A stretch of 64,000 bases of DNA from Escherichia coli (GCA_020819635.1 GCA_020819635.1_4533.1), one strand, 5' to 3'; shown: positions 25,988 through 62,190, numbered from the stretch's first letter. The notes: generated by a model not told the origin, from the letters alone. Translations and numbers: made by a program.

Positions 25988-26007
25988 AACCCGCCGAAGC
26001 GGGTTCT
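25988..26007 (-). terminator. intrinsic terminator
   Basis: minus strand AACCCGC-TTCG-GCGGGTT followed by TTTTTT. Confidence 0.55.
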
Positions 26008-55465: not shown

Positions 55466-55494
55466 TTGACAAGCCCAGGGATCGGGCTTATACT
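55466..55494 (+). promoter_or_regulatory. strong sigma70-like promoter
   Basis: TTGACA, 17-nt spacer (itself an AGCCC...GGGCT inverted repeat), TATACT. Confidence 0.5.
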
Positions 55495-55499
55495 GTTTT

Positions 55500-55700
55500 A
55501 CATACAGAAGAGGAAGCGCCACCCCACGGCGTAAAGGCGGGGCTAACATACCAGGGGGCACTGGTTGGAAGGTTGATCGCCGGTAGGCTGGGTGCTATAT
55601 ATTTGTAAAGAAATGTAAAGATAAAATAATCGCTTGCTTTCCTGGCTGGATCTGTTATTCTTATTACATGGCGAGGGGACACGGGAGCGCGAGACAAACA
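55500..55700 (+). ncRNA. candidate small non-coding RNA, GC-rich and structured
   Basis: directly downstream of a consensus promoter; no plausible ORF; locally GC-rich in an AT-rich genome; only Pro/Arg-rich antisense ORFs. Confidence 0.2.
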
Positions 55701-55722
55701 CCGCCCCTGCGCGTCATTCTCT

Positions 55723-55838
55723 AAATGAGAATGATTGTCATTTACCTTATTAAATAAGAATCAATCTCATTTATAAACTTAAATGCGAATCATTATCATT
55801 TGCATTTCCATATGAGAACTCTTCTCATTTTCACCTGC
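55723..55838. repeat. four tandem 29-bp repeats with palindromic core (operator or iteron-like)
   Basis: copies start at 55723, 55752, 55781 and 55810 (exact 29-bp period); core aAATGaGAATnaTtnTCATTT with inverted-repeat symmetry. Confidence 0.6.
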
Positions 55839-55851
55839 ATAAAAATTTTTG

Positions 55852-55910
55852 TAAACTTTAAATTTTGCTTTTGTACTTTCATTTTTGTAAAAGCAAAAAA
55901 ACTTTAAATA
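55852..55910. repeat. AT-rich direct repeat, copy A (about 58 bp)
   Basis: TAAACTTTAAATTTTGCTTTTGTACTTTCATTTTTGTAAA...ACTTTAAATA; about 85% identical to copy B. Confidence 0.5.
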
Positions 55911-55989
55911 CTGTGGGCGCGCAAAATTTTTAAAATTTTCCTTGACTTTTGAGTTTTGTTTTGTATCTAACATTTTAAGATAATTTTCC

Positions 55990-56047
55990 TAAACTTTAAA
56001 TTTTGGTTTTCAACTTTCACTTTTGTAAATTCTTAAAAAGTTTAAAT
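55990..56047. repeat. AT-rich direct repeat, copy B
   Basis: TAAACTTTAAATTTTGGTTTTCAACTTTCACTTTTGTAAA...GTTTAAATA, 138 bp downstream of copy A. Confidence 0.5.
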
Positions 56048-56177
56048 AATTTGAGGGATTTTTGAGATAAAAGATAGTGGGAATTTGATATAACCTTTAA
56101 TCTTATTGGTAAACCTTCAGGAACCCACTCAGATCGAATCCTAGTGATGCAAACTGAAAAAGACAAGGGTTTGTATA

Positions 56178-56216
56178 GGACAAAATAACAGGCTCTCTAC
56201 GGTGCTGTAGGAGCCT
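56178..56216 (-). terminator. intrinsic terminator of the minus-strand operon
   Basis: minus strand AGGCTCCTACAGCACCGTAGAGAGCCT hairpin followed by GTTATTTTGT. Confidence 0.5.
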
Positions 56217-56271
56217 TATTTCTGTGCTACAAAGTGACACCTTTGTTCTAAAAATGAAAAAAGTTAAAATA

Positions 56272-56814
56272 TCACAAATATCGTCTTTGCGGTATTTTGT
56301 CTGGGAAAAGTATTTCGATCAGTTTATTATGATATTTGCCTAAAAGATTCTGCCCTTTCCAGGTAGCAGGGTTTAGCACCCCTGGTTCATACATTCCCAT
56401 TCCAATACCGTAAACCTTATCGTAAGGACTTGCTTCAACAAACGTTTTGTATTGGTAAAGGTGTAAATCTGCATACAAATCTGGATTCTGTACATATTTC
56501 AAGCATAAGCCTCGCATAACAATACGCTCACGGTTCTCTTCCCACATATCATTATTAAAACCAGATACCGCTCGACCCATACGTTTGTAGTATGCTTGTT
56601 TCCTCTCGTTGTCACGTATAGTTGAGTGATCAAGGATAGCTGCTGCAATCGCATGATCCTTGAACAGCAAAGCCTTACGCCACATCATATATTGCTCAAC
56701 ACAACAGAAAGTCTCATTGTAACCTGGTTCAGTTTCTGTAAAGGGTGCAATATACCAATTACTAAACACATCTTTATGTGAAAAGAAGAATACATATTCA
56801 TCAGTTATTCTCAT
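56272..56814 (-). CDS. NADAR-domain protein (YbiA-like)
   Basis: VFFFSHKDVFSNWY and VEQYMMWRKA match NADAR family hallmarks. Confidence 0.75.
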   Translation of the reverse strand: MRITDEYVFFFSHKDVFSNWYIAPFTETEPGYNETFCCVEQYMMWRKALLFKDHAIAAAILDHSTIRDNERKQAYYKRMGRAVSGFNNDMWEENRERIVMRGLCLKYVQNPDLYADLHLYQYKTFVEASPYDKVYGIGMGMYEPGVLNPATWKGQNLLGKYHNKLIEILFPDKIPQRRYL

Positions 56815-57026
56815 TTTTTCATGCCTTCTAAAACTTTAGCTTGCCCGTCTTGAAAAGCTTTCATCAGAACTATCTTAAGATTGACTTCCAAACGTTCTTC
56901 ATCCTCTCTATAACAATCCAACACTGCTTTAAGTTCATCATAGTGGTTCAGAATAGGTTTAAAGATTTCATGATCTGCTAAACGTGCCATAGTTTCTCCT
57001 TTGTTAGTCCATCCACCAGTAGCCAT
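56811..57026 (-). CDS. hypothetical protein
   Basis: 71-aa ORF. Confidence 0.4.
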   Translation of the reverse strand: MATGGWTNKGETMARLADHEIFKPILNHYDELKAVLDCYREDEERLEVNLKIVLMKAFQDGQAKVLEGMKK

Positions 57027-57369
57027 AAACTGCGTCTGCGTCGATGAGTTTGTGTTTGTTGTTCCGCATGTAGTCTAAGATAAGTAGACGTTTATTGTAT
57101 CTGGAGAGATTATGACCCTCTTTTCCGCCATAGTCAAAATATTTTGCAAGATCTTTACACTCAAACAAAATCAGTTCGGGAGTTTCTTCACACTGGTCTG
57201 TCTGGTACACTTGACGAATGATCATGTATACATCGTCGTCTTCCGCTAAATGCTCTACTGGTCCACATCCAGCAGGAACAAATTCATAGTCCCATCTGAT
57301 CAGATGTTTCTCTACTGCTTCAAAGAAGTCCATTCTTTCGTTGCGCATAATTTGAACGTCAACTAACAT
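57004..57369 (-). CDS. hypothetical protein
   Basis: 121-aa ORF. Confidence 0.45.
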   Translation of the reverse strand: MLVDVQIMRNERMDFFEAVEKHLIRWDYEFVPAGCGPVEHLAEDDDVYMIIRQVYQTDQCEETPELILFECKDLAKYFDYGGKEGHNLSRYNKRLLILDYMRNNKHKLIDADAVYGYWWMD

Positions 57370-58823
57370 GTTTCCTCCTCTCTCATTATTCCACCTGCTT
57401 GGTTGATAGCACTTAAGACGATAGCCAAATCCTCGCGCAGGAAGGTTTCACTATGACCATCTTTCATGTGCAAGCGTTCTACACAGCCAATAGACGGTAG
57501 AATCTGATCAGTCTTAGACTTTAGCTTACTCTCTAACGCCCTGCAAGCTTGGTAGGACGGCAGATCGAACAATGCTATACGGCGCATAGAGTAATTGTTG
57601 TTTGCATTCTGCCCTTTGATCCTGATATCACTGTCCTTTGCAATCCCCAACTTGTAAGCTCCCGTGTCTTCTCCGTACTCATCAAGAATAATATTGATGT
57701 AAAATTCTTGCATATTTCTGTTCTTACAGCCTGGACAACCTTTCCCATTGAGATAATCGGTAGGTGTGATCGTTTGCTCTCCATGCTCCCTACATAGATA
57801 TTTAAACTTGCTGTTATTGCTTACCTTATCAATGAATCCTATAAATTGATCCCCTCGTTCCTGGCAAGCTTTGGTCATACGGTAGGCCCATTGTTCAGGA
57901 GTGTAATGATAATATTTAGAACAACGGCAAGGAAGGCCACCCCTTTTCAAATGACTCATCTTCATCTCAAATTTATTATCGCATAAGCCTTCTTTACAAT
58001 AATCATCCTCTGCACATATAGGACATTCTACAATCCAGTAAACCTGACGACCTAATCTATCTACTCTATCGCTACGATAATATTTACGCTCTACATTATC
58101 AGGACAAGCTTTTATAAAATCTTCAACATGTTGTTTATCCTCCATTGTATTCCTTTGTTTCGTCATTTCTCTTTGACAACTGTAGCATCCAGTCCCTTGT
58201 TTAGCACTGTTTACAGTGGTAGTGCACCATTGACCATGAACCTTACACTCACAAATCAACTTAGTGCGGGAACCGTTCCACGGTTCCACATAGCCTCTAA
58301 CAATCCAGGGTTTTTCTTTATAAGCTTCTTCTACTTCTTCTTTATGTTTCTCCCATGCAATCGATGTTCTTTCTCTGTTTGCTTCTCCCATACACTTCCT
58401 GCATCCACTCCCGTTTTTCGCAGAAGATATAGAAGTAGACCTCCACTCCCCATGTAAAGCACAACAACAAACCAGTTTAGTATTCCATCCTTTCCATTCT
58501 CCGTGCCATCCTGTAACAGTCCAAAACTTACCTGCCTGATTGTAAGTGGTTTGCACTTCTTCTTTATATTGCTCCCAGGTTTTTGATTTGTTTATAGATA
58601 CTGCTTTACTTATAATCTCCCTACCGCATTCTGGACAACCCCTCCCTAGTTTAGCGGTATTTATGCTTGTTGTTTTCCATTCTCCATGCAGAGCACAGAT
58701 GCATCTAAGTTTAGTTTTATTGCCGTTCCACGGCTCAATATAATCTACAACAGTCCAAGACTTACCTTGATAAGCTTGTTTTATATCTGTTTTATATTGT
58801 TCCCAAGTGACTATTTTTGGCAC
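57363..58823 (-). CDS. Cys-rich protein with three tandem zinc-ribbon-like repeats and a possible GIY-YIG/T5orf172-like C-terminal region
   Basis: three ~60-aa repeats W..Y...W...W.G..TKL.C.C..HG.W..T......K.G.GC..C; C-terminal YKLGIAKDSDIRIKGQN; putative homing-endonuclease-like. Confidence 0.4.
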   Translation of the reverse strand: MPKIVTWEQYKTDIKQAYQGKSWTVVDYIEPWNGNKTKLRCICALHGEWKTTSINTAKLGRGCPECGREIISKAVSINKSKTWEQYKEEVQTTYNQAGKFWTVTGWHGEWKGWNTKLVCCCALHGEWRSTSISSAKNGSGCRKCMGEANRERTSIAWEKHKEEVEEAYKEKPWIVRGYVEPWNGSRTKLICECKVHGQWCTTTVNSAKQGTGCYSCQREMTKQRNTMEDKQHVEDFIKACPDNVERKYYRSDRVDRLGRQVYWIVECPICAEDDYCKEGLCDNKFEMKMSHLKRGGLPCRCSKYYHYTPEQWAYRMTKACQERGDQFIGFIDKVSNNSKFKYLCREHGEQTITPTDYLNGKGCPGCKNRNMQEFYINIILDEYGEDTGAYKLGIAKDSDIRIKGQNANNNYSMRRIALFDLPSYQACRALESKLKSKTDQILPSIGCVERLHMKDGHSETFLREDLAIVLSAINQAGGIMREEETC

Positions 58824-58911
58824 ACCTCCCCCTTTAGCTATTAGTGCGAGCCTACAACAAAAGAATAACTAAAATCCCTCCATAACAAATGCCCCTTGCG
58901 GGGCATCTTTA

Positions 58912-60051
58912 TTAGAACACGCTACCAAGTGTAGTGGAACGTTGTGTTACAGGCTCCAGCACCACTCGCAAAGTGTTTCCTGGTGTAGTGCTCATAACCA
59001 GAATCTTACCACCTTCAATCAGATCACAAGTTAGACCATCAGCCGTTGCACATAGATCAATATGTGGATCACCATCTTCATCCAGGATAACATAACTGTT
59101 GGTTTCCATTGCTTCCACTTCATCATCTTTCAAACTTTGTAGATAGATGTTCAGGGAACAAGCGCCCGACAAAAACTTAGTAGGGGTGAAGTCGTGCCAG
59201 TTATTGATCCAATTCACCTTCAAGGTTTTGCCATTAGCTACGATAGAAGCCACATTCCATTTAGCATCGTTCCCTAAAGAAATACCCATCATTTCAAGAC
59301 ATTCTTTAAAAGTCATTTTTGGATAGAAATTCAATTCTTCTACAATGCCTTGAATAACATCGAAAGACAACTCTGTGCTAACATCCCATAAACGTTGGAA
59401 GTTATCTACGTGCTTTTTATTTACCAAGTTCTTATCCAAGTAATCTAACATAGTTTCACTAGACAGTTTATCGTAATTGAAACTGTAGTAGATACGACTA
59501 GGACGGTTTACAAAATATTCCGAGATATAACCACTATTTTTAGTGAGGATGTAAAGTTTATTCCCACTTCCTGTTCCATCCAACAAGGTCAACAGTGCTT
59601 CCTGATCTTCTTTCTTAGCGTACACTTTATCAAATTCGTCAAATAAAACAACAGCACGATCTGTAATTTTACTCATAAATTCTAAGAAGCCAGCATCTGT
59701 GTAAGGCTGTGTAACCAAAATGGTTGGAATACCTAAACCTTCTGTGGACATTAGAGACATGCTAATTAGTTTAGCTAACATCGTCTTACCACTGCCTTTT
59801 GTCCCTGTCAGTAACACCCCAGTATTTTTACCTTCTTTACTACGACGAGCAAATGTTTTAATAACATGTGCGGCGCGATCTTTAGTTTCCCCATAAAGAG
59901 TGTTCGGAAGAGAGAAACTTTCACCACGCACTAAAGAGTAGTTACCGTGCGGATCGCAGTTGACAACCCAAACTCCAGCAGGAAGTTTATTAGCTTCAAC
60001 GCCATATTCCTTATTTACAACAGCTACATCTCCAAAAATAGTGTATTTCAT
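58912..60051 (-). CDS. AAA+/P-loop ATPase
   Basis: Walker A GTKGSGKT and Walker B VVLFDEFD. Confidence 0.6.
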   Translation of the reverse strand: MKYTIFGDVAVVNKEYGVEANKLPAGVWVVNCDPHGNYSLVRGESFSLPNTLYGETKDRAAHVIKTFARRSKEGKNTGVLLTGTKGSGKTMLAKLISMSLMSTEGLGIPTILVTQPYTDAGFLEFMSKITDRAVVLFDEFDKVYAKKEDQEALLTLLDGTGSGNKLYILTKNSGYISEYFVNRPSRIYYSFNYDKLSSETMLDYLDKNLVNKKHVDNFQRLWDVSTELSFDVIQGIVEELNFYPKMTFKECLEMMGISLGNDAKWNVASIVANGKTLKVNWINNWHDFTPTKFLSGACSLNIYLQSLKDDEVEAMETNSYVILDEDGDPHIDLCATADGLTCDLIEGGKILVMSTTPGNTLRVVLEPVTQRSTTLGSVF

Positions 60052-61906: not shown

Positions 61907-62190
61907 CGTGCCTTCTCCCGATCTGCGTCCAATTTCAACAAGAAGGTTGCATACTCTTCTGAGCCTTGATGCAAGAACATACGATAAGAACTTACCAGTT
62001 TCTTGGTCGTTGTATAACGTTCCATTTCCCCAACAACACCTCCACCCAGGGTGTAGAGCACAACACCCTCAAACCCAACATGAGTTACTACTTCAACCAA
62101 GTCTGTGTTATCCCAATGGTAGTTAGGTGACACAATAAGATCGCCAACTGCCAGTTTAATGTTTGCTACTTCATTTTGTGAATAATACAT
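61903..62190 (-). CDS. hypothetical protein
   Basis: 95-aa ORF. Confidence 0.45.
   Translation of the reverse strand: MYYSQNEVANIKLAVGDLIVSPNYHWDNTDLVEVVTHVGFEGVVLYTLGGGVVGEMERYTTTKKLVSSYRMFLHQGSEEYATFLLKLDADREKAR

Follow-up and report, generated by a model that had tools for sequence, protein, structure and literature searches.

The window, i.e. the whole 64-kb stretch of Escherichia coli DNA that was analysed, encodes on its minus strand a protein of 486 aa with 28 Cys residues, at exactly the coordinates given in a preliminary description of this DNA (Table 1). The whole ORF matches PHROG 681, named 'endonuclease', with an E value of 8.8e-84. The same ORF is annotated in the RefSeq record of ESCO13 as gp171 with the product name 'endonuclease', and the identical 486-aa ESCO13 protein appears in the structure library under the UniProt name 'CapR homology domain-containing protein'. 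For the 2.2 kb around the gene, 23 GenBank/RefSeq records show 98-100% identity (100% for vB_EcoM_3A1_SA_NWU and 99.9% for ESCO13); all are from phAPEC8-like E. coli myoviruses of the genus Phapecoctavirus, subfamily Stephanstirmvirinae. No paralogue of the gene was detected elsewhere in the window by tblastn, and the protein had no match in PADLOC. Judged from its sequence, the ORF is a predicted CapR-array/T5orf172-like endonuclease and belongs to a family of selfish phage nucleases that has been described before.

Table 1. Features of the endonuclease locus; positions are counted from the first nucleotide of the window and protein domains are predictions.
Feature	Residues (aa)	Position	Strand	Remarks
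Endonuclease ORF	1-486	57363..58823	minus	486 aa; GTG start at 58823, TAG stop at 57363-57365
N-terminal zinc module 1 (predicted)	1-76	58596..58823	minus	CxC (41, 43)...CxxC (63, 66); self-BLAST and shuffle test
N-terminal zinc module 2 (predicted)	77-152	58368..58595	minus	C119-C121...C141, C144
N-terminal zinc module 3 (predicted)	153-228	58140..58367	minus	C191, C193...C213, C216
Core zinc module 4 (predicted)	229-305	57909..58139	minus	CxxC (267, 270)-28-CxC (299, 301)
Core zinc module 5 (predicted)	306-372	57708..57908	minus	degenerate copy of the N-terminal unit
T5orf172-like GIY-YIG nuclease domain (predicted)	373-486	57366..57707	minus	
AAA-family ATPase, upstream neighbour		58912..60051	minus	379 aa; Pfam AAA, E 8.7e-7
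121-aa ORF, downstream neighbour		57004..57369	minus	start overlaps the endonuclease stop; kept in all loci examined
GC-rich terminator-like hairpin ATGCCCCGCAAGGGGCAT		58889..58906	minus	just past the ATPase stop codon
Shine-Dalgarno region of the endonuclease gene AAAGGGGGAGG		58825..58834	minus	RBS annotated at the equivalent ESCO13 position
Downstream cassette boundary		57367..57380	minus	GAGGAGG Shine-Dalgarno and ATG of the next gene

The gene lies between two conserved neighbours. Genomes with unrelated endonuclease alleles have an upstream ATPase of 98-99% identity, and the downstream ORF has no assigned Pfam family. The hairpin that follows the ATPase gene is the sole robust element in the RNA fold of this region; it is annotated as a terminator in ASO2A and constitutes the upstream edge of the cassette in some of the junction alignments. 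At the other end, the GAGGAGG sequence and the ATG of the next gene are contained within the last codons of the endonuclease gene (REEETC), a stretch that is kept in all alleles. A leader RNA structure able to mask the ribosome binding site scored no better than shuffled sequences (z -0.27), and no sigma-70-like promoter was found between the ATPase and endonuclease genes. The endonuclease gene is a self-contained ORF and neither of its neighbours is disrupted, in agreement with the earlier proposal of a possibly free-standing gene, in this case as a cassette that extends from the ATPase stop codon/terminator to the Shine-Dalgarno sequence of the next gene.

The N-terminal region of the protein is built from three similar modules. 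In BLASTP comparisons against the whole protein, residues 1-80 aligned with residues 155-220 (module 3; 50% identity, E 6e-27) and with residues 79-155 (module 2; 49% identity, E 1e-23), and Smith-Waterman comparisons between the three units gave 186-219 vs 28-31 +/- 6 for shuffled units (z 27-35). The shared pattern noticed initially, with the core W.G..TKL.C.C..HG.W..T.....K.G.GC..C, was found in all three copies (W32-C66, W110-C144, and W182-C216), the Cys pairs being ordered CxC...CxxC. These units had been described as three tandem repeats of about 60 aa: the three repeats are real, but their period is 75-76 aa and the ~60 aa correspond to the conserved core. Based on the AF2 secondary structure, module 1 is laid out as a helix followed by three strands, and module 2 was predicted with a pLDDT of ~88-90. 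Module 3 is common to all members of the family and aligns with the lone N-terminal module of homologues of 330-340 aa.

Tandem Repeats Finder detected no DNA-level repeat in the endonuclease gene, which argues against a recent duplication. At the protein level the three repeats show up to 67% identity to the N-terminal modules of other alleles vs 48-51% to their own neighbours, and module 2 is closest to the lone N-terminal module found in other alleles (63-67%). On these grounds a recent tandem duplication was rejected; the proximity of each repeat to modules of other alleles suggests that the repeats are either old or were gained by recombination.

The nature of the modules was indicated by Pfam searches, in which the whole protein matched the CapR family (PF21817) in five stretches with 99.3 bits (cut-off 24.2, E 1.4e-28). 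The first repeat alone also passed the gathering score of this family (26.4 bits, E 8e-6), and weaker matches were obtained with the related zinc-finger families DUF723 and DUF4379. The best CapR stretch corresponds to residues 257-302, which display the canonical CxxC...CxC arrangement; in CapR domains the two Cys pairs, both present here, are ~24-28 residues apart. The four cysteines of this module 4 (C267, C270, C299, and C301) are invariant among 18 homologues. Module 5 was recognized by the similarity of module 1 to residues 308-366 (BLASTP E 4e-6; shuffle z 4.4-10), and its putative ligands C344, H347, C363, and C366 do not vary among family members. Modules 4 and 5 had been overlooked in the preliminary description. 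In the AlphaFold model of the protein (pLDDT 83.6) every module starts with a helix, continues with three strands and a short helix, and ends in a linker helix. By profile match, then, the repeats are CapR homology domains, a DNA-binding domain of the zinc-finger type, and by analogy the modules may bind both zinc and DNA.

CapR itself is a repressor encoded by PLE, a phage satellite of Vibrio cholerae, and acts on the capsid operon of phage ICP1; its paired Cys are required for DNA binding and its sequence-specific binding was shown by EMSA (PMC8096241). CapR is most closely related to the N-terminal parts of a group of ICP1 proteins, considered to be homing endonucleases, in which a T5orf172 or T5orf172-like domain forms the C-terminal end (PMC8096241). 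In a survey of T5orf172 HEGs, 87% of 229 contained CapR, DUF723 or DUF4397 zinc fingers, often several per protein (the figure legend for the same zinc-finger families has DUF723/4379), an arrangement of repeated zinc fingers for which Barth, Dunham and Seed (2023) used the term 'beads on a string' (PMC10448857). The same study reported an in-frame deletion of 228 bp between such zinc-finger repeats in ICP1 gp174 (PMC10448857); 228 bp correspond to 76 aa, the same period as that of the Phapecoctavirus repeats.

The C-terminal domain is more divergent. Searched against Pfam, the last 119 aa gave a sole match, to T5orf172 (PF10544), with an E value of 0.088 over positions 3-86 of the 101 of the model and a score of 13.8 bits vs a gathering threshold of 20. 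Equivalent domains of 12 family members behaved similarly, with T5orf172 matches in 10 (best E 0.0022) and matches to MUG113, the sister family of T5orf172, in 4, all of them sub-threshold, and ICP1 Gp165 itself reached only 18 bits against T5orf172. Structure prediction, one of the checks suggested initially, gave for residues 366-486 a model (pLDDT 91, pTM 0.84) whose C-terminal fold matches that of GIY-YIG nucleases, with a beta-beta-alpha-beta-alpha-alpha order, a three-stranded sheet and flanking helices. Compared by Foldseek with predicted viral structures (BFVD), this model had 57 matches at E <= 0.001, including proteins named 'Homing endonuclease', 'GIY-YIG domain-containing', 'T5 Orf172 DNA-binding domain-containing', and 'MUG113'. 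The YKLGI...R pattern that had been likened to GIY-YIG/T5orf172 domains lies at residues 390-401, in agreement with fold and homology.

Homology to an enzyme of demonstrated activity was traced in two steps. Direct hhalign comparison of the C-terminal profile of the family with the single Odn sequence gave no signal, and therefore the link to Odn was made via Gp165. In pairwise comparison the protein matches ICP1 Gp165 with an E value of 2e-30 over residues 182-479, which include the C-terminal domain, and Gp165 is 51% identical to Odn in the nuclease domain (E 3e-33). In a joint alignment, K-V-G, Arg, and E180 of Odn correspond to K391-x-G393, R401, and E431. Among T5orf172 proteins, Odn is the one for which cutting of DNA in vitro has been shown, and its cleavage is abolished by the E180A substitution (PMC8263062). 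Residues Y375, K391, G393, R401, Q405, N406, E431, and E459 are invariant in 18 homologues with 34-68% identity; R401 and E431 are located in helix 1 and in the helix after strand 3, respectively, the places of the catalytic Arg and Glu. Of the classical GIY-YIG motif, the second Tyr has not been kept, the conserved place being taken by K391. Because the sub-threshold Pfam matches, the fold, the homology to Gp165/Odn and the conserved catalytic residues point in the same direction, the domain is treated here as a probable divergent T5orf172-type GIY-YIG nuclease domain in which the catalytic residues are kept. Together with the CapR domains this supports the earlier reading of the product as a modular, putatively DNA-binding nuclease.

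It could be argued that the protein is a Cys-rich structural or metal-binding protein whose resemblance to nucleases arose by chance. A search of PDB sequences with the family and C-terminal profiles retrieved no nuclease and no GIY-YIG chain, the best match being the zinc-ribbon ribosomal protein bL31 (E 0.012), otherwise a chance match, and the protein has no match in NCBIfam. This explanation is contradicted by all the family, fold and homology evidence and is considered highly improbable. A second database search with the C-terminal profile retrieved close members of the subfamily only, one of them named 'GIY-YIG nuclease family protein', and no precomputed T5orf172 annotation was present among these.

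The same data bear on the idea that the product is a DNA-binding regulator which does not cleave, in which the array would bind promoters and the C-terminal domain would serve as a dead scaffold, as may be conceived from CapR or from I-TevI acting as an autorepressor. That CapR is a repressor derived from the same family, that the T5orf172 HMM score is sub-threshold, and that a Lys stands in the conserved place while the second Tyr is missing would all be in line with such a role. However, the Arg and Glu needed for catalysis by Odn and I-TevI are invariant in 18/18 homologues, CapR became regulatory through the complete loss of its nuclease domain, and K-x-G instead of Y-x-G is the normal form in T5orf172/MUG113 proteins (Odn has IKVG). 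A purely regulatory function is therefore regarded as very unlikely.

Among known systems, the closest likeness is to ICP1 Gp165 and Gp174, which share the order of CapR-type zinc modules first and T5orf172-like domain last, the repeated unit of 76 aa (228 bp) that can be gained or lost, and the occurrence as free-standing genes that adjoin conserved phage genes. Gp165 was described as a putative homing endonuclease with CapR and T5orf172-like domains (Netter et al., 2021; PMC8096241). The 486-aa protein is only 29% identical to Gp165, and differs from Gp165/Gp174 in having three well-preserved N-terminal modules plus two core modules, in a nuclease sub-branch that falls below the Pfam T5orf172 threshold, and in being encoded by an E. 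coli myovirus, where one or another of several divergent alleles always fills the slot. With Odn (Gp88) it has in common the T5orf172-type catalytic domain, whereas the DNA-binding part of Odn is a RepA_N domain taken from the satellite, with no CapR array, and Odn is a proven origin-directed weapon against the satellite (PMC8263062). PLE CapR has the same type of zinc-finger DNA-binding domain, marked by paired Cys motifs (PF21817), but is a 15.5-kDa single-domain repressor without a nuclease domain instead of five modules followed by one. In I-TevI and the T4 Seg proteins the order is reversed, with an N-terminal nuclease and DNA-binding modules of the NUMOD and helix-turn-helix types, and they have no detectable sequence similarity to the 486-aa protein. 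The match to SLX1 and At-HIGLE (11-13% identity) is one of fold only; these eukaryotic repair nucleases are structure-specific, contain a RING-type partner domain and are unrelated in their biology.

The comparison of the insertion site across related phages, which the preliminary description had suggested, revealed a hypervariable cassette slot with divergent alleles between near-identical flanks. In comparisons with ESCO5, UP17, and tuntematon, 97-99% identity extends through one flank to positions 57379-57381 and resumes at ~58882-58907 on the other side, and no DNA similarity to their alleles was found inside the cassette. The proteins encoded by these alleles are 402 aa (ESCO5), 400 aa (UP17, from annotated CDS coordinates) and 332 aa (tuntematon) in length; those of ESCO5 and tuntematon show 33-35% identity to the 486-aa protein and 61% to each other. 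Over the 71 matching records the slot falls into four size classes, which correspond to two lineages with one to three N-terminal modules.

Exchange at this locus is evident from several genomes. UP17 carries another allele between flanks that are 98.7-99.5% identical (99.5% in the left flank), while WPEC4 and ASO2A carry the allele of the 486-aa protein at 98.3% with left flanks of 89-93% (89.2% in WPEC4). Allele type is thus uncoupled from flank haplotype, the mark of horizontal exchange. Phage phiWec179 has a one-module version of the lineage to which the 486-aa protein belongs (68% identical); at the DNA level its identity drops from 97% (left flank) to 88% (nuclease domain) and then to 64-75% deeper in the gene, with 72-76% in the ATPase gene, a pattern that places a recombination boundary inside or beside the gene. 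Two types of terminator hairpin follow the ATPase gene, and ESCO5 combines an A-type hairpin with a B-type gene, i.e. a mosaic intergenic region. The features of the locus fit the published picture of nuclease genes at the boundaries of genetic exchange. The final 120 bp of the ATPase gene contained no substitutions consistent with allele type, as might mark an allele-specific target or immunity site. A possible multi-copy spread of the gene in WPEC1 (nine matching places) was discarded, as it consists of scrambled 155-bp pieces at the end of the record and is probably an assembly artefact.

No intact empty site was found among the 71 Phapecoctavirus records, in 70 of which the slot is filled, so that the presence/absence pattern of a homing gene, with an intact empty target site in relatives, is not seen here. 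The sole record without the gene, EP57, has a deletion of 1540 bp (57382-58921, with a junction overlap of 2 bp) in which the stop codon of the ATPase gene is lost as well, so that the ATPase and the 121-aa ORF form one in-frame fusion. EP57 carries other deletions too, and this one is secondary and does not represent a clean empty site or a homing target; it does show that the gene is dispensable for propagation. A homologue is located directly after the ATPase gene in Justusliebigvirus alia, of a sister genus. This homologue, together with the lack of an empty site, suggests that the gene is possibly a long-term resident, and possibly a useful one, and not an invader. The preliminary description had considered that its reading would be refuted by the combination of a missing nuclease-family match with conservation of the gene at the same locus in all relatives. 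A nuclease-family match is present; the second observation is partly true, the locus being occupied in nearly all relatives, with very different alleles.

A nuclease that benefits the phage would account for the long residence and the conserved catalytic residues as well as the continual replacement of one selfish allele by another would. In the former case the product would be an active CapR/T5orf172 endonuclease that no longer homes and is kept as a weapon in the manner of ICP1 Odn, directed for instance at satellites, plasmids, the DNA of the host or rival phages, and the divergent alleles would reflect diversifying selection on its specificity. Besides the occupation of the slot in Phapecoctavirus and in Justusliebigvirus alia, such domestication would explain why the catalytic residues are invariant across alleles that are 33-35% identical, given that decay is expected after fixation of a selfish element; the gene is also embedded in an operon and overlaps the start of the next gene, and precedents are provided by Odn and by RepA_N-T5orf172 proteins of phapecoctaviruses, e.g. 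that of Mt1B1_P17. However, the DNA-binding region is of the CapR type that is typical of putative homing endonucleases and is not borrowed from a satellite, the EP57 deletion indicates dispensability, and a clean replacement of the cassette uncoupled from its flanks is what endonuclease-driven exchange predicts. We consider domestication rather unlikely, although it is the strongest of the rival explanations.

The presence of very different alleles of one family in the same slot leads us to propose that the gene encodes a homing-type selfish or competitive nuclease, with a probability of roughly 60%. This proposal builds on what was observed directly, i.e. the architecture, family relationship, predicted fold, residue conservation, cassette boundaries and allele shuffling, and adds zinc and DNA binding, cleavage, a target and homing by analogy with the EMSA data for CapR, the cleavage by Odn and the I-TevI paradigm. 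The five CapR-type modules, three similar N-terminal ones and two in the core, would be arranged like beads and read an extended DNA target, and the array would hold the C-terminal T5orf172-like catalytic domain beside this target, where the DNA would be cut via the Arg401/Glu431 pair. During mixed infection, relatives with another allele would be cut, and recombinational repair with the nuclease-carrying genome as template would copy the cassette and nearby flanks. A change in the number of 76-aa modules may retune the target.

A bolder extension of this homing-type scheme, which we put forward as a speculation that is probably not correct as it stands, is that the post-ATPase slot of Stephanstirmvirinae is a permanent battleground in which mutually exclusive alleles would cut and replace their rivals, and in which gain or loss of the 76-aa module (1-3 copies) would serve to retarget them. 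If true, the locus would offer a natural series of tunable 'zinc-finger nucleases' and a tractable model of HEG-allele competition in which no empty site takes part.

Overall, the initial reading of this gene was essentially right and the finding is an ordinary one: both the family and its arrays of repeated zinc fingers are already in the literature, as is the part it plays at boundaries where phages exchange genes, and the identification matters little beyond correct annotation. In the supplements of Barth et al. (2023) the Phapecoctavirus slot gene is unlisted, apart from the different protein of Mt1B1_P17 (PMC10448857). What is added here is modest, namely the description of the Phapecoctavirus locus as an always-occupied slot with at least 2 allele lineages that are 33-35% identical. 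Since the number of zinc modules varies within each lineage and the flanks are nearly identical, these phages constitute a convenient natural series to relate module number to the target specificity of T5orf172 enzymes, and the same series could be used to test nuclease-driven allele replacement in E. coli phages that are candidates for therapy. The variation in module number is also seen in the wider family: a search of 5.8 billion proteins retrieved only 28 relatives, most of them of 330-340 aa with one N-terminal module and six of ~400 aa with two, three N-terminal modules being present in the 486-aa protein and in its homologue of Justusliebigvirus alia, while one relative of 669 aa consists of two such genes fused end to end.

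The terminator hairpins found behind the gene of the AAA-family ATPase, located upstream of the endonuclease gene, suggest where recombination has taken place at this locus. Comparison of window positions 58882-58911 with their counterparts at three loci of other phage records (L002, L004, and L010) showed that the ATPase stop codon is followed, depending on the phage, by one of two unrelated hairpins, ATGCCCCGCAAGGGGCAT or CCCGCTTCGGCGGG. Phage ESCO5 carries the first of these together with an endonuclease allele that is paired elsewhere with the second, and this mixed arrangement points to a crossover inside the approximately 30 bp of intergenic DNA.

In phage vB_EcoM_EP57 (OR544956; locus L003, 3358-4863) a deletion of 1540 bp, corresponding to window positions 57382-58921, eliminated both the endonuclease gene and the stop codon of the ATPase, and the AAA ATPase was thereby fused in frame to the downstream 121-aa ORF, the product being annotated as a single CDS of 501 aa. 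The genome of this phage, of only 130.7 kb, bears a further deletion at window positions 56507-56878.

Among the relatives of the endonuclease, P0002 (669 aa, encoded on a metagenomic contig) is a single predicted protein made up of two complete family members joined head to tail; each half has a single N-terminal module in addition to the core and nuclease domain. This protein represents either a genuine tandem pair in which a stop codon was lost and read through, or a gene-calling artefact. The record of phage WPEC1 (PV659873; locus L008, 19848-21539) contains nine places matching the endonuclease region; fragments of the gene, present as 155-bp tandem duplicates, lie at the end of the record and adjoin an unrelated gene. 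This array can probably be put down to an assembly artefact, not to true multi-copy spread.

The features detected beyond the 121-aa ORF are listed in the table. The NADAR-domain ORF contains a divergent patch (56501-56800) with 82% identity to ESCO5 and phage tuntematon, compared with 97-99% in its surroundings. In several GenBank records this ORF is named "GTP cyclohydrolase II," apparently through misannotation. The repeats are located in an AT-rich stretch of about 800 bp (55470-56270) without a convincing ORF, which could represent an origin of replication or a promoter cluster. The counterpart of this stretch is annotated as "repeat_region" in the tuntematon record.

Repeats and NADAR-domain ORF located at window positions 55470-56814
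Feature	Position	Strand	Details
Direct repeat, 72-nt	55844-55915 and 55982-56053		Two copies, 82% identical
29-nt unit	within 55470-56270		Three copies
Inverted repeat, 23-nt	55722-55773		
NADAR-domain protein, 180-aa ORF	56272-56814	(-)	PF08719, E 3e-35

Neither tRNA genes nor Rfam families were detected across the whole window (1-64000). Over the same interval, the sign of the GC skew flips near 26000 and again near 62000, coinciding with switches in gene orientation.
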